This document shows, in pieces, positions 24,864 through 42,948 of a DNA stretch of 64,000 nt. Origin of the DNA: a candidate division FCPU426 bacterium (GTDB lineage Bacteria > Oederibacteriota > Muellerivitia > Muellerivitales > Muellerivitaceae); assembly GCA_963738405.1 (NCBI GenBank), contig CAVTWJ010000009.1, positions 310,580-374,579 on the forward strand, read 5' to 3'. The translations under genes and the position numbers were made by a program. The first letter of the stretch is position 1. Every line of letters starts with the position of its first letter. The notes beneath the pieces are model-generated. The model saw only the letters and a program-made list of their open reading frames with translations, searched no databases and was not told the DNA's origin.

Positions 24864-24975
24864 AGATTAGCACGAATTTAAATAGGGTCTCAATGGGTCA
24901 GGGCGATTTGAGGCTTGAATAAGGGTCAAGGGTGAATAAAATAGCCCTCCGCCTGAATCAGGCGGTTGAGAATAT

Positions 24976-25050
24976 TGGGGCGTCGACAAGCGGTAAGTCA
25001 CCAGATTTTGGATCTGGCATTCGTAGGTTCGAATCCTACCGCCCCAGCCA
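24976..25050 (+). tRNA. tRNA-Gln (TTG)
   Basis: Acceptor TGGGGCG/CGCCCCA, anticodon arm CCAGA-TTTTGGA-TCTGG, GGTTCGAATCC, encoded CCA. Confidence 0.97.
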
Positions 25051-25258
25051 ATAAAGCCCGTCCCCTTTTTGGGGGATGGGCTTTATTGTTTTTGGTAATA
25101 AGGATTCGAACTGAGATGGGTATGGGGAACAGTAGGTCCCATGTCTTCAGGAGGGGTAACGTAGGGGGCAATTCCCCTACGAACGGAGTTGGTTTGACAT
25201 TCACCGTCCCAGCCAATAAAGCCCGTCCCCTTTTGAGGGAGATGGGCTTTATTGGCTG
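25038..25258 (+). repeat. 165-bp-period duplication of the tRNA 3' end plus terminator
   Basis: ACCG(C/T)CCCAGCCAATAAAGCCCGTCCCCTTTT..GATGGGCTTTATTG at 25038-25088 and 25203-25254. Confidence 0.85.
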
Positions 25259-25391
25259 AAGCAATAAGTTAATTCATTGTGTGGGATAGTCTCCCTATTT
25301 GGGTTGCTATTCCTTAATGGGTTAATTTCCACCTGAATTTTCAAAAATCTCTTGTTTCCCGATAGATAAAAATGGTTTCTTTTTTTAGGAC

Positions 25392-25418
25392 TGTCGATTT
25401 CATCCGTCCTTACTCGTC
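25392..25418 (+). promoter_or_regulatory. ECF42-type promoter P1
   Basis: TGTCGA-N17-CGTC upstream of yciI-yciI-sigma. Confidence 0.75.
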
Positions 25419-25476
25419 GTTATGATTGAACGGGCTTGAACCCGCTCTATCAACGAGATTTAAAAGGAGTCGGAAC

Positions 25477-25824
25477 ATGAGATTCATGGCTTTATGGCAT
25501 CCAGTGGCAAATGCCGCCCCGCCTAAACCCGAGCATTATGCTCAGATGGGGAAGCTGATCGACGAAATGGTGAAAGCGGGTGTTTTGCAGGATACCGGTG
25601 GATGGGATACAAAAGCCCCGCTGATTGTGGTTACCAACACCAAGGGAAAGGTGACCGTCACCGATGGACCTTATACGGAAGCCAAGGAAATGGTGGCCGG
25701 TTTCGTCATTTTCGAGGTGAGGTCCAGGGAAGAGGCGGTCCAATGGGGCAAGCGATTCATTGAGATCGCGGGCGAAGGTTTCTCCGAGATGCGGGAAATT
25801 CCCCAACCGGCGCTCAAGCACTGA
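25477..25824 (+). CDS. YciI/DGPF-family protein
   Basis: VTDGPYTEAKEMVAGF; AAGGAG RBS. Confidence 0.9.
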   Translation: MRFMALWHPVANAAPPKPEHYAQMGKLIDEMVKAGVLQDTGGWDTKAPLIVVTNTKGKVTVTDGPYTEAKEMVAGFVIFEVRSREEAVQWGKRFIEIAGEGFSEMREIPQPALKH

Positions 25825-25881
25825 TCGAAGCCGGCTGGGTGGATACCCGGCCTTGTCCATCATCCAACCAAGGAGGCGGTT

Positions 25882-26283
25882 ATGCGATTCATGATGCTCG
25901 TAATACCTAAGAACTACCAGAAGGCCACCCCAGATGCCATGCCGGATATGAAGCAAGTCGAATTGATGATGAAGTACAACGAAAGCCTTCAAAAGGCCGG
26001 GGTGCTTCTGGAACTTAACGGGCTTTTCCCGCCTTCCGCAGGCACCCGTGTTTCCTATAAGAACGGGAAAGCCACGGTGGTCGACGGGCCCTTCACCGAG
26101 GCTAAGGAGTCCATCGGCGGTTATTGGATTATCCAAGTCAAATCGAAGGAAGAAGCCATCCAGTGGGCGTCCCGTGTTCCTTTCCTGGGTGAGGAAACCG
26201 TCGAGGTCAGGCAGATCCACGAGATGGGCGAATTCCCGCCCGAGATCCAGGAACAAGCCAAGAAGATCACGGAAACCAAGTAA
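25882..26283 (+). CDS. YciI/DGPF-family protein
   Basis: VDGPFTEAKESIGGYW, VEVRQI. Confidence 0.92.
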   Translation: MRFMMLVIPKNYQKATPDAMPDMKQVELMMKYNESLQKAGVLLELNGLFPPSAGTRVSYKNGKATVVDGPFTEAKESIGGYWIIQVKSKEEAIQWASRVPFLGEETVEVRQIHEMGEFPPEIQEQAKKITETK

Positions 26284-26301
26284 TTTGAGGATGGCCAAAA
26301 G

Positions 26302-27570
26302 TTGAGCGAGTCCAACGCATACGGCGCCATTGAGGCGGTTTGGCGCATCGAGTCCTCCAGGATTATCGCGGCCCTCGCCCGCATGACGCGGGACGTGGGA
26401 CTGGCGGAGGACCTCGCCCAAGAGGCTCTGGTGGCCGCGCTGGAGAAATGGCCCCAAACCGGAATCCCAGACAAGCCGGGCGCCTGGCTCATGACCACCG
26501 CCAAGAACCGGGCCCTGGACCTGTTCCGCCGCAAGGCGATGCTAGATCGCAAGCACAACGAACTGGGAAAGGAATTGGATGAACGTATGGAAAGGACCTG
26601 GAAGGAATTCGGCGAAGAAATGGATGACGACATCGGCGACGACCTTTTGCGCCTGGTCTTCATTTCCTGCCACCCGGTCCTTCCTCCCGAAGGCCGGGTC
26701 GCTTTGACCCTGCGCCTGCTGGGGGGCCTGACGACCCAAGAAATCGCCCGGGCTTTTTTAGTTTCCGAACCCACCGTCGCCCAGCGCATCGTGCGGGCCA
26801 AGCGGACCCTGGCCGAGGCCCAGGTGCCTTTCGAAGTGCCCCGGGGAACAGAACTGGCCGAACGTCTTTCCTCGGTGCTCGCGGTACTTTATCTCATCTT
26901 TAACGAAGGCTATTCGGCTACCGCCGGGGAGGATTGGCTCAGGCCCGCCCTTTGCGAGGACGCACTGCGGCTGGGCCGCGTTTTGGCGGGCCTGGCCCCC
27001 CAAGAACCCGAGGTCCACGGCTTGGTGGCGCTGATGGAAATACAGGCCTCCCGTTTCGGAGCCCGGGTCGGTTCCGGTGGAGAACCGGTGCTCCTCATGG
27101 ACCAGAACCGGGCCCGTTGGGACCACCTTCTGATCCAGCGAGGACTGGCCGCCCTGGAAAAGGCCGAGTCGTTTTCGAAGGTACGGGGTCCCTACACTCT
27201 GCAGGCCGCCATCGCCGCCTGCCATGCCCGGGCCAAGACGGCCGAAGAGACCGATTGGAAACGCATCGTGGCCCTTTATGACGAATTGGGAAGGATAGCT
27301 CCTTCCCCCATCGTGGAACTGAACCGGGCGGTGGCGCTCTCCATGGCCTTCGGCCCCGCCGTGGGGCTGGAACTAATCGACCAACTGGCCGCCGAACCAA
27401 CGCTTAAGAATTACCACCTCCTGCCCAGTGTCCGGGGCGACTTTTTGGCCAAAATGGGCCGCTTCCAAGAGGCGCGGGTTGAAATGGAAAGGGCCGCGGC
27501 CCTCACCCAGAACGAGCTGGAGCGCAAAATGCTCCTGAAGCGCGCGGCCTCCATCGCCGCCGGAAATTAA
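26302..27570 (+). CDS. ECF42-group sigma factor with C-terminal TPR extension (paralog A)
   Basis: AEDLAQEAL..WP..G.PDKPGAWL..AKNRALD, LRLVFISCHP, LYLIFNEGY, DW..IV.LYD, LNRAVA; next to DGPF genes. Confidence 0.92.
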   Translation: MSESNAYGAIEAVWRIESSRIIAALARMTRDVGLAEDLAQEALVAALEKWPQTGIPDKPGAWLMTTAKNRALDLFRRKAMLDRKHNELGKELDERMERTWKEFGEEMDDDIGDDLLRLVFISCHPVLPPEGRVALTLRLLGGLTTQEIARAFLVSEPTVAQRIVRAKRTLAEAQVPFEVPRGTELAERLSSVLAVLYLIFNEGYSATAGEDWLRPALCEDALRLGRVLAGLAPQEPEVHGLVALMEIQASRFGARVGSGGEPVLLMDQNRARWDHLLIQRGLAALEKAESFSKVRGPYTLQAAIAACHARAKTAEETDWKRIVALYDELGRIAPSPIVELNRAVALSMAFGPAVGLELIDQLAAEPTLKNYHLLPSVRGDFLAKMGRFQEARVEMERAAALTQNELERKMLLKRAASIAAGN

Positions 27571-27583
27571 AAGCTTCTTGCCT

Positions 27584-27610
27584 TGTCGATCCTGGCCCTC
27601 CTCCTTCGTC
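27584..27610 (+). promoter_or_regulatory. ECF42-type promoter P2
   Basis: TGTCGA-N17-CGTC followed by GTTA as in P1, upstream of the DoxX gene. Confidence 0.75.
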
Positions 27611-27648
27611 GTTAGGGTAGAAGCCGAAAACACAAAAAGGAGGAAGTC

Positions 27649-28050
27649 ATGCAATCGAATAAATCAGGCGGTTCAAAAGGGGCGCTCTGGACGGGACGGG
27701 TTATCAGTACCCTTTGTATCTTGTTTCTGACCTTCGATGGGGCCTCGAAAGTTTTTCAGGAAAACCATGTCATGCAGGCCATGGCGCAGGGGGGCTATTC
27801 ACCCAGCGTCACCGTTCCCTTGGGTATCACTCTTCTTGTCTGCACCCTTCTCTATGCCATTCCCGCCACTTCGGTTCTCGGCGCCGTTCTTCTCACCGGC
27901 TGGTTGGGCGGAGCGGTCGACTCCATGGTGCGCATGGCGGCCCCGGGCCATCCCTTTCTTTTTCCGATTTTTTTCGGGGTGCTGGTCTGGCTGGGTTTGT
28001 ATTTAAGGGATGACCGGCTTAAGGCATTTCTGCCGATCCGAAAGAATTAG
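27649..28050 (+). CDS. DoxX-family membrane protein
   Basis: Four TM segments, LYAIPATSVLGAVLLTGWLGGAV, GLYLRD. Confidence 0.85.
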   Translation: MQSNKSGGSKGALWTGRVISTLCILFLTFDGASKVFQENHVMQAMAQGGYSPSVTVPLGITLLVCTLLYAIPATSVLGAVLLTGWLGGAVDSMVRMAAPGHPFLFPIFFGVLVWLGLYLRDDRLKAFLPIRKN

Positions 28051-28060
28051 GGAGTCCGCC

Positions 28061-28609
28061 ATGTCCTATCAAGCCTATCTGGATAACATCAAAGAAAAGA
28101 CCGGGAAGTCCCCGGAAGATTTCCGGCTTCTGGCCGGTCAAAAAGGTTTGGCCGACCGGGCGGGCATCATGGCTTGGCTTAAGAAGGAATTTAACGTGGG
28201 TTACGGCCATGCCCACCTGATCGCGCACTTGATCCTGCACCATGGGGAAGCGGAGGTCGCCCCGAAGGACCGACTGGGGAAGCTTTTCTCAGGCAAGAAG
28301 GCCCATTGGCGGAAGGCCTTTGACGGGCTGGCCGGCAAGGTCATCAAGTTCGGAAAGGACGTCGAGGTCAAGCCTAACGAAACCTATATCAATTTGAACC
28401 GAAACGGAAAAAAGTTTGGGATTCTTCAACCTTCCTCGGCAGACCGCTTCGATATCGGCATCAAATTGAAGGGTTTAAAACCGCAAGGGCGGCTGGAAGC
28501 GGCTGGTTCTTGGAACTCCATGGTGACCCACCGTGTGAGCATCACGGAGGTAAAACAAATCAACGCGGAAATACTTGGCTGGCTGAAAGAAGCCTATGAA
28601 CGGATATGA
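28061..28609 (+). CDS. DUF4287 + DUF5655-like protein
   Basis: MSYQAYLDNIKEKTGK..WLK..GYGHA; C-terminal MVTHRV..WLKEAYE. Confidence 0.7.
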   Translation: MSYQAYLDNIKEKTGKSPEDFRLLAGQKGLADRAGIMAWLKKEFNVGYGHAHLIAHLILHHGEAEVAPKDRLGKLFSGKKAHWRKAFDGLAGKVIKFGKDVEVKPNETYINLNRNGKKFGILQPSSADRFDIGIKLKGLKPQGRLEAAGSWNSMVTHRVSITEVKQINAEILGWLKEAYERI

Positions 28610-28644
28610 GAAAGAAAATCTTTGATGAAATGGCGTTGAATCAA

Positions 28645-28680
28645 CAAAGCCCAATCCCGCAAGTGGGAATTGGGCTTTGT
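28645..28680. terminator. bidirectional terminator
   Basis: CAAAGCCCAATCCC-gcaagt-GGGAATTGGGCTTTG between convergent genes. Confidence 0.7.
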
Positions 28681-28699
28681 GGTAAAACCGTTCGAAGGA

Positions 28700-29701
28700 T
28701 TATTTCGCCCTATCCGATCTTTTCGTTTCCGCTTTATCCGTCAATTTGGAAATCTCGTCCTTCACTTCCTGATCGATCTTATCGTCTTGGGCGATGGCCG
28801 TTAAATCATCCGGGCTTAATTTAAAGCCCGATTCCAGGAATAACTTCACGATATAGGTATCCGAGTTCTCCGCGGCCGCCATGAAGGTGGGTTTATCGTA
28901 AGTCACATGGCCGTCGAGCAGTTTTTGCCTCGCCGCGTCTTTTTTGGCCTCGCTGTTATCGGTCGTGTTTTTGGAAGGCTCAAAGGAAAGGGAGACTTGA
29001 ACCGTCCAACCGCTGTAATCGATTCCCGTGGGCAATCCGGTGGGTAGGGCAGGCAAAGAGGAAGAGGCGGGGCTGTAGGAAACATTGGGGAAGTTGGCGA
29101 AACGGTAATTGCCCTCCACGCTGATTTGCAGGTTTTCAAAGGTTAAGGGCGTGAATCCCAAACCCAGCTCCAACCCCAGCGCGGTCCCGGCCACGTTGTA
29201 GGTGCTGCCGTTGGAAATCAAGGCGTCGTTTCCCAGAAGATCGGAGATGGAATAGAGCCCGCCGATGCAGAAGAAATAGGGTTCCAACAAAGACTTTTCG
29301 TTCACGTCGATCCGGGTCCCGGTATAGAGGGCGCAAACGGGAATGTTCCATTGAAGGTTGTATTGCTTGCCGCCTTGGTTGACGCCGCCCGATCCCGTCC
29401 GGCCCAGCCTTTCGGTGCCCACGAACCAATTGAAAAAATCCTGGGTGTAAAGGGTGATGTCCGACCCAAAGGTGGTTTGGTTCATGTCCAGGCTGTTGAA
29501 CCCGCCCGGCTGGGTGTTGTAAAAGGTTTGGCCGTAGTAAAAGTCGATCTCCTTGGTGTCGAAGGACGCGATATAGGCGGTTCCAAAGAGGGCCCCCACC
29601 ATGGTGGAGGCGACTTGGGCTGAGGCGCGCTGGGCGGGAAAAAGCGCCAGGCAAAAGATCATTCCTAAAAATATATTTTGAAACGGAAATCTTTTAAACA
29701 T
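28700..29701 (-). CDS. exported outer-membrane beta-barrel-like protein with an ankyrin-like C-terminal tail
   Basis: Signal peptide (ASA), alternating beta strands (EPYF, GLELGLGF, VEGNYRF, IDYSGWTVQVSLSF), then FMAAAENSDTYIVKLFLESG. Confidence 0.55.
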   Translation of the reverse strand: MFKRFPFQNIFLGMIFCLALFPAQRASAQVASTMVGALFGTAYIASFDTKEIDFYYGQTFYNTQPGGFNSLDMNQTTFGSDITLYTQDFFNWFVGTERLGRTGSGGVNQGGKQYNLQWNIPVCALYTGTRIDVNEKSLLEPYFFCIGGLYSISDLLGNDALISNGSTYNVAGTALGLELGLGFTPLTFENLQISVEGNYRFANFPNVSYSPASSSLPALPTGLPTGIDYSGWTVQVSLSFEPSKNTTDNSEAKKDAARQKLLDGHVTYDKPTFMAAAENSDTYIVKLFLESGFKLSPDDLTAIAQDDKIDQEVKDEISKLTDKAETKRSDRAK

Positions 29702-29753
29702 AAAGCCTCCCTTTTTAAAATCGGCCTACATCCCAATCTTCCGCCTATGTTGC

Positions 29754-30560
29754 TTATTTCTTTTTGTTTTCTTTCGCGATCTCGGTGACAAAACCCTCGC
29801 CTAAGATTCCCGCCGGCAAGGCAAAAAGGCCGATTCCCACAAAGGCATTGATGGCGTGGATCAGTTTTCCGAAATTGGTGATGGGGGTGATGTCGTGATA
29901 ACCGACGGTTGAGAGGGTCATGAGGCACCACCAAATCGTCGATGGGATATCGGGGAAATAGGTAGGCTGGGCGTCATGTTCGGCGAAGTACATCAAGCAA
30001 GAGGTAATGACCAGGGTGATCCCGGCGAGCAGGAGGGTTACGGTTAATTCGTGCCTTTTGGCGTAGATCACCCGGTTGATCATGCCCAGTTTTTTCGAGT
30101 AATGGGCGACCTTCAAAACACGGAAAATTCTCAAGAGGCGGATGATACGGATAAACCTCAAATCAATTGGGAAGAAAAAGGGCAGGTAAAAGGGAAGGAT
30201 CGAAAAGAGATCCACCAGCGCCAGGGGCGAAAAAACGTACTGGATCAGGCCCCAAAAGGGTTTCTTGTACCGCTTATCAAACTGGCTCAAATAAATCCGG
30301 CCGATGTACTCAATGGAAAAGACCACGATCGAAAATAACTCGAAACCGTCAAAATAGGGCTTATAGACCATGTAAATATTGCCGACGGTCTCGTAAATCA
30401 CCGCCAAGACGTTCATGAAAATAAGGCCGAGAATGAAGATATCGACGGTCGCGATGATTTCTTTATGTTTTTGGGAGAGGGTGGTTTTTTTCACCGGCGG
30501 GGCTCCCCAAGGGTGTTTGAGACCATCGCGCAAGATTATAACCGGACTCTTGTTTTTCAT
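29754..30560 (-). CDS. six-TM voltage-gated K+-channel-like ion transporter with a TVGYHD filter
   Basis: S4 LRFIRIIRLLRIFRVLK, pore helix WWCLMTLSTVGYHD, ALPAGIL. Confidence 0.85.
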   Translation of the reverse strand: MKNKSPVIILRDGLKHPWGAPPVKKTTLSQKHKEIIATVDIFILGLIFMNVLAVIYETVGNIYMVYKPYFDGFELFSIVVFSIEYIGRIYLSQFDKRYKKPFWGLIQYVFSPLALVDLFSILPFYLPFFFPIDLRFIRIIRLLRIFRVLKVAHYSKKLGMINRVIYAKRHELTVTLLLAGITLVITSCLMYFAEHDAQPTYFPDIPSTIWWCLMTLSTVGYHDITPITNFGKLIHAINAFVGIGLFALPAGILGEGFVTEIAKENKKK

Positions 30561-30586
30561 GTCCGGTTTTAGATTTCCCGTTCGTC
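30560..30586 (+). promoter_or_regulatory. ECF42-type promoter P3
   Basis: TGTCCG-N17-CGTC upstream of the second DoxX gene. Confidence 0.7.
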
Positions 30587-30630
30587 GTATGGTATAGAGG
30601 AGCATTGAATCCACTAAAGGAAGGCGTGAA

Positions 30631-31038
30631 ATGGCTCAAAGCGTCGCTGAAATGAAGGCCAAATGGATGAAGACGGCCAAGGTGCTCTATTGGATCGAGA
30701 CGATCCTGGTGGTTTTCTGCATGGGTTCGGGAGGGGTGATGATGCTCATCGGCTCCCCGGCCAATGTGCAGGGAATCACCGACTTGGGTTATCCCGCCTA
30801 CCTTTGCACCATTCTGGGAACGGCCAAGATATTGGGTTGCATCGCGGTTTTGTTCGGCAGTAAAAAATTCCGCACGCTCAAAGAATGGGCCTACGCGGGT
30901 TTTACTTTTGATCTATTGGGAGCCTCGGCTTCCTACGTTCTGCATGGGGGCGCGCCCCTGTTACATGTGATCGCGCCGCTCATCATCCTCGTTTTTGTTT
31001 GGCTGTCGCGTCAACAATGGAGGACCGGTTGGATGTAA
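30631..31038 (+). CDS. DoxX-like membrane protein
   Basis: LGYPAY..ILGTAKILG, LKEWAYAGF.FDL.GA. Confidence 0.88.
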   Translation: MAQSVAEMKAKWMKTAKVLYWIETILVVFCMGSGGVMMLIGSPANVQGITDLGYPAYLCTILGTAKILGCIAVLFGSKKFRTLKEWAYAGFTFDLLGASASYVLHGGAPLLHVIAPLIILVFVWLSRQQWRTGWM

Positions 31039-31048
31039 GGAGAACCCA

Positions 31049-31075
31049 TGTCCGGTTTTACTCCTCCCCTTCGTC
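31049..31075 (+). promoter_or_regulatory. ECF42-type promoter P4
   Basis: TGTCCG-N17-CGTC upstream of the VOC-like gene. Confidence 0.7.
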
Positions 31076-31126
31076 ATTCAGATAAGGAAACAAAAGGGGC
31101 CTCGGGGTCCGGAAAGGCAGGGTTAT

Positions 31127-31507
31127 ATGACGCAAATATCTTTGGGAAACCATTCCAAAATTGTCGCACTTCCCTCGGAACAGGGAAGGCTCAGACGGTT
31201 TTTTGTTGAAATCTTGGGATGCGAGCAAACGAAAAAAACGGACCAGGTGGATTATTTCCGGTTGGGGAGCGATTTTTTCCTGGCGGTCCTTTATGGCGAC
31301 CAGGTGCTGGAATCCGAATCCCTCTTGAAATCCATATGGCTGGAGCTCAAAGCAGGTCACCCGGAGGAAATGAAAAAGAAGATCCGCGATTTTGGGGTGA
31401 AGGAACTCGAAAGCTGGGACAAGGAACACCTCTATTTCCAGGGGCCGGGGGGGCAGGTTTTCCGGTTGGTCGGAAAATCCGAAGACCTCTCCCGGTTTGA
31501 AAGCTAG
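31127..31507 (+). CDS. VOC/glyoxalase-like protein
   Basis: RRFFVEILGC ... LYFQGPGGQVFRL pattern. Confidence 0.6.
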   Translation: MTQISLGNHSKIVALPSEQGRLRRFFVEILGCEQTKKTDQVDYFRLGSDFFLAVLYGDQVLESESLLKSIWLELKAGHPEEMKKKIRDFGVKELESWDKEHLYFQGPGGQVFRLVGKSEDLSRFES

Positions 31508-31533
31508 GCTGTTTTATTAGGTAAAGTTTCCCG

Positions 31534-31560
31534 TGTCCGGTAACCCTATCCCTGTTCGTC
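31534..31560 (+). promoter_or_regulatory. ECF42-type promoter P5
   Basis: TGTCCG-N17-CGTC upstream of yciI-yciI-sigma B. Confidence 0.72.
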
Positions 31561-31612
31561 ATAGGGATAGAGGCGCCGAAAGGCCTCAATAACGATCTTA
31601 AGGAGAAGCGCC

Positions 31613-31972
31613 ATGGCTGATTTCGTGTATTTATTCTGGAACCAAAGGGAAGACCAAAAACGGATGGCGCAAGCCACGCCGGAAGAAAAGAAGGCCATCA
31701 CCCAGCGCTGGATGAAGTGGCTGGGGGATTTGAAGGACAAGGGGCATGTGAAGGATTTGGGCGCGCCGCTGGAATTTACGGGCAAGACCCTTCAAGGCCC
31801 CCAGAAACAGGTCACCGACGGCCCCCACCCCGAAGCCAAGGATGTCATCGGCGGCTTTTCACTTATCACCGCCAAAGACCTGGATGAGGCGGCAGAGCTG
31901 GCCAAGGGCTGTCCTATCCTTGAATTGGGCGGCCGGGTGGAAGTAAGGCCCATCCGCCCCATGCAATCCTAA
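31613..31972 (+). CDS. YciI/DGPF-family protein
   Basis: VTDGPHPEAKDVIGGF, VEVRPI. Confidence 0.9.
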   Translation: MADFVYLFWNQREDQKRMAQATPEEKKAITQRWMKWLGDLKDKGHVKDLGAPLEFTGKTLQGPQKQVTDGPHPEAKDVIGGFSLITAKDLDEAAELAKGCPILELGGRVEVRPIRPMQS

Positions 31973-32006
31973 TCGTTCAAACCCTTACGAGATAAAGGAG
32001 ACTCAA

Positions 32007-32351
32007 ATGAAGAAATTCCTGTACCTGTTCTGGAACAAACCGGCCGATTGGAAAGCCCAATCGCCTGAGCAGATGGAACAACGCATGCAGAAGTGGATGA
32101 AATGGATGGATTCCCTCAAGGCCGCCGGTCATTTCAAGGGCGCGGGCGAAAGGCTGGAGGATGGTGGAAGCGTGGTGCGGGGCAAGGCCAAAACCGTCAC
32201 CGACGGGCCCTACGCCGAGGCCAAGGACACCATCGGAGGCTATATCGTGGTGGAAGCCAAGGATCTGGCTGAAGCAGTGGAGCTTTCAAAAGAGTGTCCC
32301 GTGCTCGAAGGCGAAGGCCTGGTTGAGGTGCGCCCCATCGCTTCGATGTAA
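32007..32351 (+). CDS. YciI/DGPF-family protein
   Basis: VTDGPYAEAKDTIGGY, VEVRPI. Confidence 0.92.
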   Translation: MKKFLYLFWNKPADWKAQSPEQMEQRMQKWMKWMDSLKAAGHFKGAGERLEDGGSVVRGKAKTVTDGPYAEAKDTIGGYIVVEAKDLAEAVELSKECPVLEGEGLVEVRPIASM

Positions 32352-32372
32352 GGTTTTGCCTAAAATAACGCC

Positions 32373-33647
32373 ATGAGCGACATACCTGGTTTAGTGGACC
32401 ATCTTTTCCGCCGAGAGTCGGGGAAGATGGTTTCTTATTTAACCCGCGTTTTCGGCTTCAGCCGGCTCAATATGGCTGAGGACGTGGTGCAGGATACCCT
32501 CATCAAGGCCCTGGAGGTCTGGCCCTTCCACGGCGTGCCCGACAACCCCTCGGCCTGGCTCATGCGGGCCGCCCGCAACCGGGCCATCGATATCATCCGC
32601 CGAGACAGCCGTTTCAAGCTTGCCGCGCCCGAACTCGCCCACCTCCTCAGGCTCCGGGAAGAGGAAAGCGGGGAGGTGCCGATTCCCGACCAAGAAATCC
32701 AAGACGCCCAGCTTCGAATGATGTTCTCCTGCTGCCACCCGGACTTAACCGCCGACTCCCAGATCACCTTGATTCTCAAGACCCTCTGCGGGTTCAGCGT
32801 TTCGGAAATCGCGCAAGCCCTCTTGAGCCGGGAAGATTCGGTTGAGAAACGCCTGGGCCGCGCCCGCAAGACCCTTCGCGATTCCGGCACCTTTGTCGAA
32901 CTCACCGAAAATTCCGATATTCCCAGCCGCCTGGAGGCGGTATATCAGGCCCTCTACCTGCTTTTCAACGAGGGCTACCACGCCAGCCGGTCCGACCGCA
33001 AGGAACCCGAAGACTTATGTTATGAAGCCATCCGGCTGACACTACTTCTCGGCGAGCATCCCCAAGGCCAGAAGCCCAAAACCTTTTCCCTTTTGGCCCT
33101 CATGTGCCTGCACGCCGCGCGCCTGCCGGGCCGCACGGCTGACGATGGAAGCCTGATCCAGCTTGAATTTCAGGATCGCGCTAAATGGGACAGGTTCCTT
33201 ATGGGCCAGGGGTTTCATTATCTTGAAAAGGCAAGGGAAGGGCATTCCGTCAGCGAATACCTGGTGGAAGCCAGCATCGCCGGGCTCCACTGCGAGGCCA
33301 AGACCTATCAGGAAACCGAATGGGGAAGAATTTTGGAACTTTACGACCTGCTATACCACCTGAAACCCTCACCCGTGGTGGGCTTGAACCGGGCCATCGC
33401 GGTGGGTAAAGCCAAGGGGCCCGAGGAAGGGTTGGCCGAACTGGGCAGAATTACCGACGCCGGGAAGCTGAAGGACTATCCCTTTTACCCGGCGGCTTTT
33501 GGGGAATTCCATTTACTGGCGGGAAGGCATGAAGAAGCGGGGAAGCATTTTGAAAAGGCCATGGGCCTGGCAAGAAATGAGCACGAGCGGGACTTTTTTG
33601 AAAAGAAGAGAGGAGTTCCCTCAAACCGAATTTCTGAAAAGGACTAG
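32373..33647 (+). CDS. ECF42-group sigma factor (paralog B)
   Basis: DHLFRRESGKMVS, AEDVVQD, PDNPSAWL, LRMMFSCCHP, LYLLFNEGY, LNRAIA. Confidence 0.92.
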   Translation: MSDIPGLVDHLFRRESGKMVSYLTRVFGFSRLNMAEDVVQDTLIKALEVWPFHGVPDNPSAWLMRAARNRAIDIIRRDSRFKLAAPELAHLLRLREEESGEVPIPDQEIQDAQLRMMFSCCHPDLTADSQITLILKTLCGFSVSEIAQALLSREDSVEKRLGRARKTLRDSGTFVELTENSDIPSRLEAVYQALYLLFNEGYHASRSDRKEPEDLCYEAIRLTLLLGEHPQGQKPKTFSLLALMCLHAARLPGRTADDGSLIQLEFQDRAKWDRFLMGQGFHYLEKAREGHSVSEYLVEASIAGLHCEAKTYQETEWGRILELYDLLYHLKPSPVVGLNRAIAVGKAKGPEEGLAELGRITDAGKLKDYPFYPAAFGEFHLLAGRHEEAGKHFEKAMGLARNEHERDFFEKKRGVPSNRISEKD

Positions 33648-34003
33648 GTGGATATCCGGTTAAAAGATTTTTCCTCGGGCAGGTTCGAAAGATAGTTTTT
33701 CAAGGTGTTTTCGTCCTCCGCCTGCATGGCCTCAAAATGAAGCCCCCCGCCGGCGCCGTTGGTCCAGACCACCTCGGCATAGGCTGAAATCATCCGGGAT
33801 ATTTTGGGAAGGGTCAGGTCCATTCGAATGAGGGCGCCCTTTACCAGGGCCTGATCGGACGCCAAAAATAAGCCTCCCAAACTCACGTCCAGGGTATGGC
33901 TGAACCGTTCCTTTTGCATTTCCCCAGCTTTGTATTTAACAGGTAACTGGAGCGAAGTACGGGGATGGTGTCTTCGTTCGACGGGTTTATCGGCTTGAGG
34001 CAT
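33644..34003 (-). CDS. stand-alone PilZ domain protein (c-di-GMP receptor)
   Basis: RxxxR (RRHHPR) and DxSxxG (DVSLGG) motifs. Confidence 0.85.
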   Translation of the reverse strand: MPQADKPVERRHHPRTSLQLPVKYKAGEMQKERFSHTLDVSLGGLFLASDQALVKGALIRMDLTLPKISRMISAYAEVVWTNGAGGGLHFEAMQAEDENTLKNYLSNLPEEKSFNRIST

Positions 34004-34220
34004 TTTGAATTCCTTGCTAGTTAAGTGGTTGAAACATTTCTTCGTTGTATAGCGATGGATCGGAAAGGAAACCATGAAAAAATGCTTCATGTTCTCCCGA
34101 TTCTGTTTTTTTCTTCCAAACTGTCATTTTGCGCGGCGATGGGCGACTGGGGAAACAGCTTAAACCCTAAAAGTTTCGATTTCGGAAAAACGATTTGGAA
34201 AACACCAAGGCCGGCAGTTT

Positions 34221-34592: not shown

Positions 34593-36170
34593 TCAATCCA
34601 GCACTGCGATGCTTTCGGGTTTTCCGGGTTTTAGCACATTGTGGGTAGGCAAAAAGAAGGCGGGGATCAGCGCCAGCATGACAATGCCGGCTCCCACTAG
34701 AAAAGCATCCTCAAAACCGGCTACGGCGGTCATCTTGAAAATTTGCCCCGCCACCACCGCGCCCGCGCCCCGCATGGAATCCACATGCGAAAGCCCCAGG
34801 CTGTGAAGTCGATCCGCCACCCCCGCCAAGGTCCTTTGAGAAGTCGGGGTCATTGGGCTCCAAGTGGCGGCCGCCAAACTTTGATGAAAAATCGTGCGAT
34901 GGTTTAAAAGGGCGCCCAAAAGCCCGATCCCCACCGAACCGGCCACCTGCTGGGTCAGGTTCATCATGGCGGAAGCCATGCCGGCCTTTTCCTTGGGGAT
35001 ACAGTTGAGGGCGGTGACCATGACGGGGGTAATGAGAAGGGCGATGGCCACGCCCCGGATAAGGGTGGGTTCAATCACATCCCAGATGCTGGTGTTGATG
35101 TCGAGCGTCCGGTAGGTGTACATGAAATAGGCGATGCCCAACAACCCGACCAGGGAAGGCCAGAGGGGGCCGATCTTGTCGCTCAACTTTCCGGCGAGGG
35201 GCATGAAGATGGCGATCATCAATGAGCCCGGAAGCAAAATCAGCCCGCTGTCGATTTCGTTGAATCCCATGATTTGCTGAAGAAACAGCGGAAGCAAAAA
35301 GACCCCGCCGAAAAGGGCCAGGGACCTGGCGGAAATGACCAACATGCAGGCGGCGTATACGGGCGATTTTAGAAGCCTTATATCCAAAATGCCGTGGGGG
35401 GTCAGGCTTTCCACCACCGTGAATCCGACAAAGCCCGTAAAGGCCAGGGCCCAGCAGGTATAGATGTAACCAGAAGACCATCCTTTTTCTTCCCCCTGGC
35501 TCAAGGCCAGCAAAAAGGTCACCAGGAAGGTGGAAAGAAAAAGAAAACCCCACAGGTCAAAGGGATGCTTAAAGCTGTGCTCGGAGGGTTTATCCTCGCG
35601 CAAAAGGGCCAGGGCCATCAATACGGCCAGAATGCCGACCGGAAGGTTGACGGTAAAGATCGAACGCCAGCCGAACTGGTTGGTCAGGTAGCCCCCCAGG
35701 GTGGGGCCGAAGGAGGGGCCCACAATGACCCCCACGCCCCAATAGCCGATGGCCTTGCCCCTTTCGGCGGGCTCGAAAACCTCGGCGATCATGGCCATGC
35801 CGGTGGGGGTAATGGCGCCCCCGCCCAGGGCCTGGATGACGCGGGCCGCCACCAATGACGGAAGGTTCCAGGCCATGGCGCAAAGAAGCGAACCCAAGGT
35901 GAAAACAAAAAGGCTGATCACGAAAAGCCGCTTGTAGCCTATGTGTTCCCGAAGCCAGGCGGTCAAGGGCATGAGGGTAGCGAAGGCCAGCATATAGCCC
36001 GTGACGACCCATTCAATGTCGGTAACGGGCGAGCCGAAGTCGGCCATGATATCGGGAAGGGAAACGTTGACGATGCTCTGGTCCAATGCGGCCATGAGAG
36101 TGCCGATCATGACCACCCCCAGCACTTCCCACTTATAGGGAATACCTGTGACGCCGGGGGTGTTGTACAT
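34593..36170 (-). CDS. DHA2 (EmrB/QacA-type) MFS efflux permease
   Basis: MAALDQSIVNV.LP, WVVTGY, RVIQALGGG, GPTLGG, WRSIF.VNLPVG. Confidence 0.92.
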   Translation of the reverse strand: MYNTPGVTGIPYKWEVLGVVMIGTLMAALDQSIVNVSLPDIMADFGSPVTDIEWVVTGYMLAFATLMPLTAWLREHIGYKRLFVISLFVFTLGSLLCAMAWNLPSLVAARVIQALGGGAITPTGMAMIAEVFEPAERGKAIGYWGVGVIVGPSFGPTLGGYLTNQFGWRSIFTVNLPVGILAVLMALALLREDKPSEHSFKHPFDLWGFLFLSTFLVTFLLALSQGEEKGWSSGYIYTCWALAFTGFVGFTVVESLTPHGILDIRLLKSPVYAACMLVISARSLALFGGVFLLPLFLQQIMGFNEIDSGLILLPGSLMIAIFMPLAGKLSDKIGPLWPSLVGLLGIAYFMYTYRTLDINTSIWDVIEPTLIRGVAIALLITPVMVTALNCIPKEKAGMASAMMNLTQQVAGSVGIGLLGALLNHRTIFHQSLAAATWSPMTPTSQRTLAGVADRLHSLGLSHVDSMRGAGAVVAGQIFKMTAVAGFEDAFLVGAGIVMLALIPAFFLPTHNVLKPGKPESIAVLD

Positions 36171-36187
36171 CAGGAAACCTCAACCCA

Positions 36188-36344
36188 TTCACCACCAAGG
36201 CACCAAGACACCAAGGAAGGCATATGATTAATCGGCACCACAAAAAAATGTCTTTTTGGTTTTGTTGTCATACATAAAAAAGTTTTTCTTGGTGACTTGG
36301 TGCGATGCAAGCCCGTCCCCAAGGGGGACGCATCGTGGTGGTAA
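36188..36344. repeat. palindromic element of 8-bp CACCAAGR units with a nested hairpin
   Basis: Left arm CAC-CACCAAGG-CACCAAGA-CACCAAGG; right arm CTTGGTGACTTGGTG[cgatgc..gcatcg]TGGTGGT. Confidence 0.65.
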
Positions 36345-36378
36345 AAATCTTTTTTGTTTGAAGTTTTAAGAAAATGCA

Positions 36379-37248
36379 TTAGTGAACCTTGATTTTAATT
36401 TCAACCGACTGCCCGGCCTTCAAGACCCGGTCGGGATGGGGGTCCAGGGTCACCTTGACCGGGACGCGCTGGACGAGCTTAATGAAATTGCCTGAGGCGT
36501 TTTCCGCCGGAAGAAGAGCAAACTGAGAGGCGGTGGCGGCGGTGACTTCGGCCACCTGGCCGGTCAAGCTGCCCCCTTCGTCCACGCGAATCGTTACCCT
36601 TTGGCCGGGCTTCACGTCGCCCACGTTGGTTTCCTGGATATTGGCGGAGACCCAGGCGTGGTCCACGTCGGCGATCACCAAGGCTACCTGCCCCGATTCC
36701 AGCAAATTGCCCTCGACGCCGATTTTTTCAATCACGATGCCGTTGACCGGACTTTTCAAATAGGTGTGGTCCAGGGCGTTCTGGGCCAACTGCAAATCCG
36801 CCTGGGCCGATTGGGCGCCCGCCTGGGAGGCCTGGTAATCCCGGGCGGCGAGACCGCCCTGTTTGAAAAGTCGGTCAGCCCTGGAGGTATCGGACGAGGC
36901 CAGGTTTGCCCGGGCCTGGGCCTTCAAAAGCTGGGCCTGATAAATGGTGTGGTCCAATTCGGCCAAGACCTGCCCCTGGGTGACCGGGTCTCCCTCGGCC
37001 ACGTTGATTTTTAAAACCGTCCCGGTCACGCCGTCGGGCGCGACCCGCACCAGATTCTCGGCCACCCGGGCGTCGTCGGTGGAAACATAGGGCCGATAGA
37101 AGAAAAACCAAACGACCATGCCGATTAGAAAGGTGGCCAAAAAGGCCCAACCCACCCTTTGCGCCATTTGGGATTTCCACCAGGGGGCCGCTGGCGCGGG
37201 ATGGGCCTCGGGATGGGACGATTTGTTTTTATGCGGTTGGAGGCTCAT
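36379..37248 (-). CDS. EmrA/HlyD-family membrane fusion protein
   Basis: VSTDDA, SQFALLPAENASGNFIKLVQRVPVK. Confidence 0.92.
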   Translation of the reverse strand: MSLQPHKNKSSHPEAHPAPAAPWWKSQMAQRVGWAFLATFLIGMVVWFFFYRPYVSTDDARVAENLVRVAPDGVTGTVLKINVAEGDPVTQGQVLAELDHTIYQAQLLKAQARANLASSDTSRADRLFKQGGLAARDYQASQAGAQSAQADLQLAQNALDHTYLKSPVNGIVIEKIGVEGNLLESGQVALVIADVDHAWVSANIQETNVGDVKPGQRVTIRVDEGGSLTGQVAEVTAATASQFALLPAENASGNFIKLVQRVPVKVTLDPHPDRVLKAGQSVEIKIKVH

Positions 37249-37691
37249 GCTTTCTCCTTGGATAGATGTTGAGTTATTTTTTGAAGGGTTTGGGTGAAAT
37301 TCTTTTTTTCACCTGACGACAAAGTTTCCAGCGCGACTTCGGATAAAAGCCGGTAAATTTTTTCGATCTCCGCGGCGAGTTTTTCACCCTTGGGGGTAAG
37401 CGAAAGTTCCCAGCGTCTTTTATCCGTGGGGTGTTCCCCCTGGCGCAAAAGGCCTTGCTTCAAAAGCTGGTTCACCATTTTGGTCATGGCAGCGGGGTCC
37501 GTCAGGGTATCCCGGGATAGTTCGGCCGGGGAGGCCTTTCCCCGTTTTGAGAGAAAGCGCAGGATCGGGGCCTGTTTGACCCCCAGCCCCAAGGGACGGA
37601 GGGCGTTATTGAAATGAAGGCTTAGGGACCTTCGACAGCGGCCAAAGGCCTCCAAGAGTTGCAGGTCTGAATGGGTGGAAGTTGATTTCAT
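37245..37691 (-). CDS. MarR-family regulator
   Basis: Winged HTH, L.KQGLL.....TDKR...L.LT.KG; start uncertain. Confidence 0.9.
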   Translation of the reverse strand: MKSTSTHSDLQLLEAFGRCRRSLSLHFNNALRPLGLGVKQAPILRFLSKRGKASPAELSRDTLTDPAAMTKMVNQLLKQGLLRQGEHPTDKRRWELSLTPKGEKLAAEIEKIYRLLSEVALETLSSGEKKNFTQTLQKITQHLSKEKA

Positions 37692-37717
37692 GGACATATC
37701 CATAATGGATGTATCCA
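37691..37717. promoter_or_regulatory. tandem palindromic operator, probably MarR
   Basis: TGGACATATCCA-taa-TGGATGTATCCA abutting the marR start. Confidence 0.6.
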
Positions 37718-39342: not shown

Positions 39343-39804
39343 CTACTCCTCTTCTTGGGTCAAAAGCCTGGGGCCGGGCCCCTTGGCGCGGAGCACGTCG
39401 AAGGGATTCCTTAGGGGGCAATCCCTTAAAGAAAGACACCCGCAGCCGATACAGCTATTGAGCTGGTTCTTCAGCTTCGTCAACTGGGTGATGCGGTCCT
39501 CCAGGTGTTTTTTCCACTGTTTTGAGGCGATTTTCCAATCGCCGGTGGTGGCCTTCTTATCTTTGGGCAGGTGGTCCAGGCAGTTTTTAATTTCGGTCAA
39601 GGAAACGCCCAGGCCCTGGGCGACTTTGATTAAAGAAACCCGCCGTAAGACCTCCCGGCCGTAACGCCGCTGGTTACCGCTGTTGCGGACGCTCTTGATG
39701 AGACCCTTGGTTTCGTAGAAATGCAGGGCGGAGACGGCCACGCCGCTGCGTTTGGAAAGCTGACCGACGGTGAGTTCCTGCCATTGGGCGAATGGATTTT
39801 TCAT
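39343..39804 (-). CDS. soxR: redox-sensing activator SoxR
   Basis: RSGVAVSALHFYE.KGLI.S.RNSGNQRRY; [2Fe-2S] motif CIGCGCLSLRDC. Confidence 0.96.
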   Translation of the reverse strand: MKNPFAQWQELTVGQLSKRSGVAVSALHFYETKGLIKSVRNSGNQRRYGREVLRRVSLIKVAQGLGVSLTEIKNCLDHLPKDKKATTGDWKIASKQWKKHLEDRITQLTKLKNQLNSCIGCGCLSLRDCPLRNPFDVLRAKGPGPRLLTQEEE

Positions 39805-39935: not shown

Positions 39936-40150
39936 GAATAGATGGAAGCCGATATTGGATGCGTGAAACCGGTAAATTAAAGGATTCTTAACGGAATGGA
40001 CCTTGGTTTTTGACCGAGTCTCCATTACATTCCCAACCGAATTCTTTTTAGACAAAAGAGGATTCGGGGGGATCTGTCTTTCGTGACGGCCTTCCCCGAA
40101 ACGAAAAAGGGGGCATGCCAGTGAAAGCAAAACGCGAAACGAGGAAAAAG

Positions 40151-40867
40151 ATGCCAGAAATCGTCTCCATCCAACATGTTCACAAGGACTACCCCCTGGA
40201 TAAGGTGGTGGTGCCGGCCTTAAGAGGCGTCAGCCTGAGCGTGGCCCAGGGCGACTTTCTTTCCATTGTGGGGCCCTCGGGATCGGGCAAAACGACCCTC
40301 CTCAACCTGATCGGTTGTGTGGATGTGGCAACGAAGGGAACGGTTCTAATCGACGGCCACGACACCAAGAGCCTGAACGACCGCCAACTGACCGACCTGC
40401 GCCTGCACACCCTGGGATTCATCTTCCAAAGCTTCAACCTGGTGCCGGTGCTTTCGGTGTTTCAAAACGTTGAATTTCCCCTGCTTTTACAGCGCAAGTT
40501 GACGGTGGAAGAAAGGGCGAAAAGGGTGGATGAACTGCTGGTGAAGGTGGGATTGAACAAGCATTCCAAGCACCGCCCCAGCGAACTCTCCGGCGGACAG
40601 CGCCAAAGGGTGGCGATCGCCCGGGCTTTGGTGACCCGGCCCAAGATTGTCTTGGCCGATGAGCCGACCGCCAACCTGGATTCGGTGACCGGCGAAAACA
40701 TCATCGACTTGATGAAAGAAATGAACCGGGAAGAAAAAACCACCTTTATTTTCTCCACCCATGACGCCAAGGTGATGAGCCACGCCAACTCGGTGATCCG
40801 GCTGGCGGACGGCAAAATCGCAGAAGGCAAAGGGGCAAGCGGTCGAATGACCGCGGGGGCCCACTGA
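40151..40867 (+). CDS. ABC ATP-binding protein (LolD/MacB-like)
   Basis: GPSGSGKT, LSGGQRQRVAIARAL, ADEPTANLD, THD. Confidence 0.95.
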   Translation: MPEIVSIQHVHKDYPLDKVVVPALRGVSLSVAQGDFLSIVGPSGSGKTTLLNLIGCVDVATKGTVLIDGHDTKSLNDRQLTDLRLHTLGFIFQSFNLVPVLSVFQNVEFPLLLQRKLTVEERAKRVDELLVKVGLNKHSKHRPSELSGGQRQRVAIARALVTRPKIVLADEPTANLDSVTGENIIDLMKEMNREEKTTFIFSTHDAKVMSHANSVIRLADGKIAEGKGASGRMTAGAH

Positions 40868-42948
40868 TGGACGGGTTCCTGCTTCTTCTCAAGATATCGC
40901 TGCGCAACATCTTTTCCCATTTCCTGAACATCGTCATCGGGCTCATCATTTTGGTGGGGACGCTCCTCTTCGTGGTGGGCGGGTCAATGGTGGACAGCAT
41001 GGACAAGGCCATGAGCCGAAGCATCATCGGCTCGGTGGCGGGAAACGCCCAGGTGTACCAGGGAACTTCCAAGGATACGCCCTCGCTTTTTGAAAGCTGG
41101 CAGATCCCGGATCTGGACCCCATCCCCGATTTCTCCAAGATCAAGGGCCCCTTGATGAGCCACCCCAATGTGGCCGCGGTGGTGCCGGAGGGCATCAATA
41201 CGGCCATTGTGGTTTACGGCAATACCATCGACCAGATTTTGGAGAAATTAAGAAATTCGGAAAATCCGAAGAATAAAGCGTCTAAAGAAAAAATCGAGAG
41301 CCTGAAAGCTCATGTTCGCCAGATGGTTTCGGTGATCCAGACCGATATGGGCAAGCTGGGTAAAATTGCCGCCAAGGGATCGGTAGACCCCCAATCCATC
41401 AAGGATTTGGCGGTGGCCTCTTCCGATTCTTTCTGGAACAGCTTCGATCGCGATCCCCTCAACCACCTGGAATTCTTGGAAAACAAGATCGCCTACCTGG
41501 TGCCCGATTCGGACCAGATTTTCCTTTCTTACGTGGGCACTGATCTGGACGCCTACCAGAAGGCCTTCGACCGTATGGAAGTGGTGGACGGGCAAATGGT
41601 GCCGCCGGGCCACCGGGGCATGCTGATTTCCAAATATGTATACGAAGAACAGTTCAAGTTGAAGGCCGCGCACCGTCTTGACCAGATTCACGAGGCCATC
41701 ACGCAAAAGTACAAAAAAATCGCCAAAGACCCGGATTTACAGGATCTGGTGCGGCAAAACAAAATGCAGACCCGGGAAATTGTGCTTCAGCTGGACCCCT
41801 TGTCCACCCAGAAAGCGGTTTCGATTCTCCAGGGCACTCTCGGCTCGAAAGAAACGGACATCGCGAAATTATTAGCCTCCTTCTTTGATATGAATGACAG
41901 CAATTTTGAGGCCCGCTACAAGCTTTTTTACGATCAGCTGGCCCCCATGGTCGAGCTTTACCGCCTGAACCCCGGCGACATCCTGACGATTAAGACCTAC
42001 ACCAAGTCGGGTTTCGTGGAGGCCGTGAACGTGAAAATTTACGGCACCTTCCAGTTCAAGGGGCTGGAAAAATCCGGTACCGCAGGGGCCCTCAACCTGA
42101 TGGACCTGATGAGCTTCCGCGACCTCTACGGCTACGTGACGCCCGAAAAGATCGCCGAGACCAAGGAAATTCAAAAAGAAGCGGGCGCTAAATTCGTGAG
42201 CCGGGATAACGCCGAGGCCGACCTTTTTGGATCCTCCGCCGCGCCGGAAATAGAATCGGCCACGAACCACCACATCGACGCCAAGGCGGTCTTAGGCGGA
42301 GTGAAGGCCCAGCGCACCGACCTAAACGCCCAGGTTTATACCCAGGCCGAAGTGGAAAAGGGCATGGTGATGGGGGCGGCGATTTTGCTGAAAGACTCGT
42401 CGAAACTAAAAGAAACCATGAAGGATTTACAGGAAATCTGCGACAAAAACCAGTTGGGGCTCAAGGTGATCGACTGGCAGAAGGCGGCGGGCAACCTGGG
42501 CCAGTTTGTCTTCGTGGCCAAGATCATCCTCTTCCTGGCCACGGCCATCATCTTTGTGGTAGCCCTGGTGATCATCAACAACGCGGTGGTGATGGCCACC
42601 CTGCAAAGGATCCGGGAAATCGGCACCATGCGGGCCATCGGGGCGCGCAAGGGTTTCGTGCTGGCCATGGTGCTCACCGAAACGGTGGTGCTGGGATTTG
42701 TCTTTGGCTCCATCGGGGCCTTTTTGGGAAGCTCGTTCGTTCTCTGGCTTCAGCACGTGGGGGTGCCCGCGGGCAACGACTTCATGTTCTTTTTCTTTTC
42801 GGGCCCGAAGCTTTTCCCCTTCCTCAGCGCGGGGAGCCTGATCGGGGCCTTTTTCGTGGTGATCATCGTGACCTGCCTGTCGGCCCTGTATCCGGCCGTC
42901 ATGGCGACCCAGGTGACGCCTATCCAAGCCATGGCCTCGGAGGATTAA
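40867..42948 (+). CDS. FtsX/MacB-type ABC permease with a very large extracytoplasmic domain
   Basis: N-terminal TM, long loop, RIREIGTMRAIG plus three TMs. Confidence 0.85.
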   Translation: MDGFLLLLKISLRNIFSHFLNIVIGLIILVGTLLFVVGGSMVDSMDKAMSRSIIGSVAGNAQVYQGTSKDTPSLFESWQIPDLDPIPDFSKIKGPLMSHPNVAAVVPEGINTAIVVYGNTIDQILEKLRNSENPKNKASKEKIESLKAHVRQMVSVIQTDMGKLGKIAAKGSVDPQSIKDLAVASSDSFWNSFDRDPLNHLEFLENKIAYLVPDSDQIFLSYVGTDLDAYQKAFDRMEVVDGQMVPPGHRGMLISKYVYEEQFKLKAAHRLDQIHEAITQKYKKIAKDPDLQDLVRQNKMQTREIVLQLDPLSTQKAVSILQGTLGSKETDIAKLLASFFDMNDSNFEARYKLFYDQLAPMVELYRLNPGDILTIKTYTKSGFVEAVNVKIYGTFQFKGLEKSGTAGALNLMDLMSFRDLYGYVTPEKIAETKEIQKEAGAKFVSRDNAEADLFGSSAAPEIESATNHHIDAKAVLGGVKAQRTDLNAQVYTQAEVEKGMVMGAAILLKDSSKLKETMKDLQEICDKNQLGLKVIDWQKAAGNLGQFVFVAKIILFLATAIIFVVALVIINNAVVMATLQRIREIGTMRAIGARKGFVLAMVLTETVVLGFVFGSIGAFLGSSFVLWLQHVGVPAGNDFMFFFFSGPKLFPFLSAGSLIGAFFVVIIVTCLSALYPAVMATQVTPIQAMASED

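Follow-up and report, generated by a model that had tools for sequence, protein, structure and literature searches.

The two gene sets described here lie in a stretch of 64,000 nt from a candidate division FCPU426 bacterium (assembly GCA_963738405.1, contig CAVTWJ010000009.1), in the following called the window. Each set contains a gene for an extracytoplasmic function (ECF) sigma factor of the ECF42 type, and the predicted promoters of the two sets differ in their −35 element.

Gene content of the two ECF42 modules

In both sigma factors, sigma A (26302..27570, + strand) and sigma B (32373..33647, + strand), we detected sigma2 and sigma4 (Pfam Sigma70_r2 and Sigma70_r4_2) together with a match above the cut-off to TIGR02937 (sigma70-ECF), which make up the ECF core, an architecture that has neither region 1 nor region 3. 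A C-terminal DUF6596 extension is likewise present in both (E 4.7e-36 in sigma A and 1.1e-31 in sigma B). The TPR fold of this extension is putative; TPR_12 gave a weak match below the cut-off, in sigma B only. A preliminary description of this DNA had assigned both proteins to ECF42 and had predicted the sigma4 recognition helices TVAQRIVRAK in sigma A and SVEKRLGRAR in sigma B. The domain searches agree with this assignment, and the helices are present in the two translations, with A160, Q161 and V164 in sigma A and E158, K159 and G162 in sigma B.

Two YCII-domain genes (PF03795) lie directly 5′ of each sigma gene, A1 (25477..25824, E 6.7e-13) and A2 (25882..26283, E 1.8e-19) before sigma A, and B1 (31613..31972) and B2 (32007..32351) before sigma B, all on the + strand; a YCII-related gene at position −1 is a trait of ECF42. 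Each set further contains one gene for a DoxX_2 membrane protein (PF13564), so that the composition of two YciI genes and one DoxX gene per set had been described correctly. DoxX_2 A (27649..28050, +), the orthologs of which adjoin sigma A in the related genomes G020 and G023, is followed by a gene encoding a DUF4287/DUF5655 protein (28010..28609, +; Pfam), and the G023 ortholog of the latter has a TGTCGAATT site of its own. In the second set, DoxX_2 B (30631..31038, +; E 2.4e-19) and a gene for a protein of 126 amino acids (31127..31507, +) precede the YCII genes. The 126-amino-acid protein is without a Pfam match; its nearest ESM Atlas clusters score 0.97–0.98 and partly carry PF00903 or PF18029 (glyoxalase/VOC), a lead toward a possible VOC/glyoxalase fold.

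Two genes on the − strand separate the modules, one for a protein of 333 amino acids (28700..29701) without a match in Pfam or NCBIfam and one for an ion-transport channel (29754..30560; Pfam Ion_trans and Ion_trans_2), the likely start of which is Met19 of the longest open reading frame (ORF). The NCBIfam search gave no names for the small proteins of the locus. Among the neighboring genes, we found no match to anti-sigma families in Pfam, a search that does not cover sigma binding by the DoxX_2 proteins or the 333-amino-acid protein. The assembly, which is 90.7% complete, contains just two DUF6596 genes, those of sigma A and sigma B.

Predicted promoter sites

Using a pattern search anchored on TGTC, we located all five sites with a 17-nt spacer that had been reported for this locus, each on the + strand. 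The A-type sites (TGTCGAT-N16-CGTC) are P1 (25392..25418), upstream of the YCII-YCII-sigma A operon, and P2 (27584..27610), upstream of DoxX_2 A and the DUF4287/DUF5655 gene. The B-type sites are P3 (30560..30586; TGTCCGGTTTT-...-TTCGTC), upstream of DoxX_2 B, P4 (31049..31075), upstream of the gene for the 126-amino-acid protein, and P5 (31534..31560), upstream of the YCII-YCII-sigma B operon. Both types have the spacer and the −10 element CGTC in common and differ in bases 5–7 of the −35 element (GAT vs. CGG). P1 and P2 match the published ECF42 target promoter TGTCGAT/CGTC exactly; beside sigma B, TGTCCGG is found instead, with CGTC and the spacer kept. P3 abuts the likely ATG of the divergent ion-channel gene and is therefore intergenic only with that start.

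Both patterns are far more frequent here than expected by chance. TGTCGA-N17-CGTC was found twice (at 25392 and 27584) and TGTCCG-N17-CGTC three times (at 30560, 31049 and 31534), against an expectation of 0.07 for each in the window; at least two and at least three matches, respectively, were reached in 0 of 100 shuffled sequences. In the whole assembly (3.18 Mb, 23 contigs), the A-type pattern occurs twice, both times in the window, and the B-type pattern four times, three of them at the sigma B module. A scan for sigma-70-type promoters and terminators yielded background levels. Because the sites were found by a TGTC-anchored search, one might suspect chance matches or the sites of another factor, but we consider this extremely improbable. 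Apart from the low chance expectation, the sites are located 38–58 nt upstream of start codons and fit the ECF42 motif reported for Streptomyces targets (Casas-Pastor 2021 supplement). Moreover, the strict pattern of the family-wide survey described below was found 92 times on the strand of the sigma gene vs. 6 times on the opposite strand, and the promoter elements stand out as conserved islands in diverged spacers.

A looser pattern scan revealed one further site, P6 (39909..39935, +; TGTCGGGTTTT-...-TTCGTC, full match TGTCGGGTTTTGCCCTTTCCGTTCGTC), which has the same build as P1–P5 and had been overlooked in the preliminary description. It lies ~6 kb from sigma B and 179 nt 5′ of an ABC ATPase gene (40115..40867), which is followed by a gene for an FtsX-type permease (40867..42948; both +; Pfam ABC_tran and FtsX). 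The −35 element of P6 reads TGTCGGG, that is, with G at position 5. The orthologous transporters in G023 (87% and 76% identity) and G012 (89% and 74% identity) have TGTCCGG sites, TGTCCGGTTTT and TGTCCGGTCC, so that a promoter site for this ABC transporter is kept in three genomes. Upstream of the transporter, comparison between the window genome and G023 showed the promoter elements as a conserved island, the remaining spacer having diverged. Because of this island and the TGTCCGG sites of the orthologs, the ABC ATPase and the FtsX-type permease are likely targets of sigma B. A third ECF42 sigma factor as the reader of TGTCGGG was considered and rejected, since only two DUF6596 proteins are encoded in the 90.7%-complete assembly. 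P6 leaves a leader of ~180 nt before the ATPase gene; the leader in G023 is similar in length and poorly conserved in sequence. A gene for a MerR-family regulator (39343..39804, −) is arranged divergently from the transporter genes.

Pairing of −35 type and sigma type in related genomes

DUF6596 genes were detected in six of 41 genomes (40 related genomes and the window's own) and in none of three genomes from the same genus. Within the bacterial family, orthologous sets of the A type are present in G004, G020 and G023 and those of the B type in G012, G016 and G023; G023 thus carries both sigma types, on different contigs. Near the related A-type sigma genes, we found the sites TGTCGATTT, TGTCGAATT or TGTCGAAAC, with TGTCGA[TA] in G004 and G023. 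The sites near the related B-type genes read TGTCCGGG, TGTCCGGA, TGTCCGCT and once TGTCGGGG, with TGTCCG[GC] sites in all three genomes. The pairing is kept across orthologs of five genomes.

We also searched these five relatives genome-wide. Intergenic A-type sites were found only together with an A-type sigma gene (one in G004, four in G023), and intergenic B-type sites only together with a B-type sigma gene (four in G012, three in G016, two in G023). Four matches of the wrong type, two in G004 and one each in G020 and G016, all lie inside long ORFs.

Family-wide survey of helix residues and −35 bases

The survey comprised 187 ECF42 sigma factors with a readable helix, taken from relatives and from three further collections, namely named genomes spread over many phyla (80 loci), metagenomes (80 loci) and two actinobacterial genomes (18 paralog loci). 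A strict site was defined as TGTC-N18-TCG[AT]C on the strand of the sigma gene, no more than 4.5 kb away and followed by an ORF within 200 nt. At least one such site was found for 62 of the 187 sigma factors.

Base 5 of the −35 element varied with the residue aligned with K159 of sigma B, which corresponds to RpoE position 172. With Lys at this residue, base 5 was C in 49 sites, G in one and T in three; with Gln, it was G in 20 sites, C in one and T in one. The sole Gln-to-C case is P3 of the window, located less than 4.5 kb from sigma A. Arg was found with C (two sites) and Ala with G (one site). The residue pair Ala-Gln was associated with GA at bases 5–6 in 18 of 20 cases, Glu-Lys with CG in 15 of 18, and Ala-Lys with CT in 18 of 27. 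Counted per sigma factor, 58 of 60 were concordant, with Lys or Arg at the position of RpoE Ser172 accompanied by TGTCC and Gln by TGTCGA; adding four sites from a relaxed pattern gave 61 of 63. For Glu at the 171 position and G at base 6 (TGTCCG), 35 of 40 sigma factors were concordant. Raw mutual information for base 5 peaked at 0.67 with the Lys/Gln column, and for base 6 at 0.79 each with the Glu/Ala and the Gly/Val columns. These peaks, at helix columns 5, 6 and 9, correspond to Arg171, Ser172 and Phe175 of E. coli K-12 RpoE as aligned by MAFFT. Only weak matches resulted when the sigma4 segment by itself was searched against a structure database; the RpoE equivalence rests on the alignment.

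Position weight matrices were built with this bacterial family excluded, from 16 sites of Gln-type sigma factors, 11 of the Glu-Lys type and 35 of other Lys types. They scored the window sites reciprocally: P1 and P2 were positive only on the Gln matrix (+8.2 and +3.9, vs. −3.8 and −9.0 on the Glu-Lys matrix), and P3–P5 only on the Glu-Lys matrix (+6.3 for P3 and P4 and +2.2 for P5, vs. −6.8 and −14.5). P6 scored −1.8 and +2.0, respectively. The idea of co-evolved −35 and sigma4 changes, put forward in the preliminary description, is supported by comparison as far as the covariation between residues and site spelling is concerned, which is seen in about 60 sigma factors of many phyla, in relatives with a single sigma type and at the residues equivalent to RpoE 171, 172 and 175. 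That the change took place within a local duplicate is not, as discussed further below.

The sampled members of the TGTCC-type clade belong to Acidobacteriota, Bacteroidota and Verrucomicrobiota or were recovered from soil metagenomes. The two actinobacterial genomes G041 and G042, from which loci L080 and L046 derive, encode 9 and 10 DUF6596 sigma factors, many of them with the same AQ/GQ helix. Their residues at RpoE position 172 are Gln, Lys, Arg, Ala or Thr; the copies with Arg or Lys are found near TGTCC and those with Ala or Thr near TGTCGA. Two metagenome contigs carry adjoining ECF42 genes of different helix type, Glu-Lys next to Gly-Gln in L170 (1086–2369 and 2944–4173) and Glu-Lys next to Lys-Arg in L159 (3082–4482 and 6732–7637); mixed-class ECF42 pairs may be recurrent. 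In L058, a metagenome-assembled genome (MAG) of Hyphomicrobiales, a Gln-type sigma factor with a helix ending in RAQ instead of RAK is encoded behind a TGTCTAAT site and is possibly a further specificity variant.

Proposed specificity classes and possible overlapping recognition

We suggest that the locus probably contains two separate ECF42-type modules of two old specificity classes, each sigma factor with its own promoter set. On the basis of the comparisons presented so far, distinct cognate −35 classes appear well supported, and insulation in the strict sense, with each sigma factor using only its own set, is reasonably likely. Sigma A has Ala-Gln-x-x-Val at the residues equivalent to RpoE 171, 172 and 175 and would guide RNA polymerase to the TGTCGAT-N16-CGTC sites upstream of its own YCII-YCII-sigma operon and of the DoxX/DUF4287 operon. 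Sigma B, with Glu-Lys-x-x-Gly, would read TGTCCGG-N16-CGTC before the second DoxX gene, the small gene with a possible VOC fold, its own YCII-YCII-sigma operon and the MacB-like ABC transporter 6 kb away. Discrimination would reside in −35 bases 5–7 (GAT vs. CGG), read by the sigma4 recognition helix. Contacts of Lys or Arg172 with the guanine paired with C5, and of Glu171 with the cytosine paired with G6, would be chemically plausible.

Both sigma factors might instead read both sets, the −35 differences tuning promoter strength within one cross-wired regulon. TGTC, the 17-nt spacer and CGTC, which the two sets have in common, are compatible with such overlapping recognition, as are the hybrid site P6, which scores near zero on both matrices, the use of TGTCGGGG by G012 with a B-type sigma factor only, the many actinobacterial paralogs with one helix type and the single motif published for all of ECF42 (Casas-Pastor 2021 supplement). 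We nevertheless regard it as rather unlikely: the −35 elements differ at three bases in a row, orthologs of five genomes retain the spelling of their type, intergenic sites of one type are absent from relatives without the matching sigma factor, and the differing residues occupy experimentally defined specificity positions.

A number of observations weigh against two insulated classes, or limit how far the residue code can be generalized. Position 5 is no absolute discriminator, since G is found there both in P6 and in the TGTCGGGG site (TGTCGGG) of G012, which has only a B-type sigma gene and in which this site precedes the sigma operon itself, in an autoregulatory position. In G020, which has an A-type sigma gene, no A-type site was found genome-wide or within 1.7 kb upstream of the operon. 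No strict site was found for 125 of the 187 surveyed sigma factors, often because contigs were short, and the counts given above are thus based on one third of those surveyed. The association between residue and −35 element largely reflects one deep clade split: independent residue-class switches on the tree number only three, all accompanied by the base change but short of significance (sign test, p = 0.25), and just two of them are on supported branches. Neither the 18 paralog loci nor the four relaxed-pattern sites changed these numbers. Independent pairs for Glu171 and G6 are few and mixed. The many copies with the same helix in G041 and G042 indicate that co-resident paralogs need no distinct −35 element in general. 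Finally, mutants at position 172 of ECF14_1324 had weak base preferences for Lys or Gln (PMC7776599), so that this published experiment does not itself predict the code proposed here.

Origin of the two modules

The two sets had been interpreted as a duplicated circuit co-evolving in place. The sequence comparisons do not support this. Sigma A and sigma B are identical at 159 of 417 positions (38%), whereas each has relatives at 74–80% identity in other genomes. In a FastTree phylogeny of 83 ECF42 proteins they fall on opposite sides of the deepest split, sigma A in the Q clade and sigma B in the K clade, and each of these deep clades contains closer relatives of the respective window sigma factor from other phyla. 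The YCII proteins are more similar within a set (45/113 and 62/117 aligned positions identical, 40% and 53%) than between sets (28/95 to 41/113, 29–36%), and identity between the two DoxX proteins is ~22% (25 of 116 aligned positions). The divergence therefore predates this genome, and a recent tandem duplication is not supported. The similar make-up of the two sets is, as judged from these identities, the common ECF42 module plan, with two old modules in which the YCII pairs were duplicated within each set. The closest relative of sigma B in a named genome (70% identity), in a Bryobacteraceae MAG (L015, 5013–6256), is broken up into two ORFs that overlap, owing to either a frameshift or an error in the assembly.

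Both modules lie next to a tRNA-Gln (UUG) gene (24976..25050, +; ARAGORN), which forms the left edge of an accessory segment; the same tRNA gene is present in G001 and G003 of the same genus. A partial duplicate, consisting of the 3′ end of the tRNA gene and a terminator hairpin (25188..25268, +; direct repeats D10 and D13), is found 165 nt farther on. It is 81% identical to the original, and a 27-nt core occurs twice in the window vs. 0.00 expected. Together, the tRNA gene and its partial copy look like an insertion or excision scar at a tRNA site; since they span 24976–25268, the longest-ORF call at 24966–25259 is spurious. G001 has the same hydrolase gene and tRNA-Gln, and homologs of window positions 34597–37700 begin ~380 nt after them. 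According to this gene order, ~9.5 kb from 25051 to ~34590, between tRNA-Gln and an MFS transporter gene, are missing in G001. The segment comprises both sigma modules, the ion channel gene, the gene for the 333-amino-acid protein and, as its last gene, one with a PilZ domain (33644..34090, −; PF07238). No integrase gene was seen within it. In G003, the DNA 3′ of tRNA-Gln has no similarity to the window. As part of the interpretation preferred here, we think that both modules probably came on this ~9.5-kb accessory segment next to tRNA-Gln and not by local duplication.

The location of the modules, 3 kb apart on one accessory segment, would also suit a cascade in which one sigma factor activates the operon of the other. 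We consider such a serial arrangement very unlikely, because there is no A-type site before the sigma B operon and no B-type site before the sigma A operon; the site that precedes each operon matches its own sigma type.

Comparison with known ECF systems

With 10,294 sequences in the 2021 classification, ECF42 is among the largest ECF groups (Casas-Pastor 2021), and 70.66% of it comes from Actinobacteria and 22.49% from Proteobacteria (Casas-Pastor 2021 supplement). The same supplement gives a single motif for the group, with TGTCGAT (−35) and CGTC (−10) shared. The window sigma factors resemble this group in sigma2 and sigma4, in the C-terminal DUF6596/TPR extension of ~250 amino acids and in the YCII genes directly upstream; the modules further resemble it in their small, local predicted regulons. 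ECF42 is described as having no anti-sigma gene beside the sigma gene, and in the Pfam searches none was recognized among the neighboring genes here. The sigma A sites fit the TGTCGAT...CGTC motif, which the supplement reports for Streptomyces targets. Sigma B and its clade differ in having TGTCC(G/T/A) instead of TGTCGA; within the ECF42 family, sigma B is best regarded as a variant in specificity. Glyoxalase-like genes also belong to the ECF42 regulon of S. meliloti (PMC6180224). That ECF41 and ECF42 have been named local regulators (Todor et al. 2020, PMC7776599) agrees with the few, closely spaced sites at this locus.

Covariation between sigma4 and the −35 element is established, with specificity residues aligned with RpoE Arg171, Ser172 and Phe175 (Todor et al. 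2020, PMC7776599). Basic residues at these positions select C on the non-template strand; in Dataset S3 of that study, the share of C at −31 was 0.98 with Lys and 0.88 with Arg at the 171 position. The ECF42 case is alike in that the −35 spelling tracks the residues equivalent to RpoE 171, 172 and 175 and that a basic residue is accompanied by C. Here, however, the basic residue is at 172, and the base it is paired with adjoins the one tracking residue 171, a comparison in which the −35 numbering is not confidently matched.

Rhodius and colleagues reportedly described orthogonal ECF sigma/promoter pairs for synthetic biology in 2013. Such pairs are similar in that insulation is achieved at the promoter level, by different −35 and −10 elements. 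They come from different ECF groups, whereas both members of the candidate pair described here are from a single group, with the spacer and the −10 element in common.

Co-resident paralogous ECF sigma factors are also known from the EcfG type of Alphaproteobacteria, including two with distinct promoter sequences in Rhizobium etli; EcfG paralogs mostly share targets and are under NepR/PhyR control (PMC8103513). The ECF42 pair differs in its separate local regulons, as predicted, and in that partner-switch genes are lacking. A literature search gave no description of TGTCC-type ECF42 promoters; Liu et al. 2018 and the large Todor data sets, which lay outside this search, could list them.

Discussion

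Covariation of sigma4 with the −35 element being established, our findings extend known work and add no new mechanism; what is new is a specificity variant in a known family. Beyond this locus, ECF42 may not be a one-motif group. A residue code at the positions of RpoE 171, 172 and 175 would then specify at least three −35 classes, namely Ala-Gln with TGTCGA, Glu-Lys with TGTCCG and Ala/Asn-Lys with TGTCC(T/A), and mixed co-resident sigma factors would constitute natural orthogonal pairs. We see about equal grounds for and against this wider generalization. With a second, clade-specific motif linked to known specificity residues, regulons could be predicted better in Acidobacteriota, Bacteroidota, Verrucomicrobiota and candidate phyla, the targets of which would be missed with the published motif.

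If the code is true, swapping two or three residues would retarget an ECF42 sigma factor, and the locus offers a candidate for a minimal residue swap toward orthogonal ECF switches with no more than three differing −35 bases. For the biology of the family, the two modules would represent a compact case of promoter-level insulation between paralogous sigma factors and would illustrate how similar stress-response switches might be kept from cross-wiring in nature.

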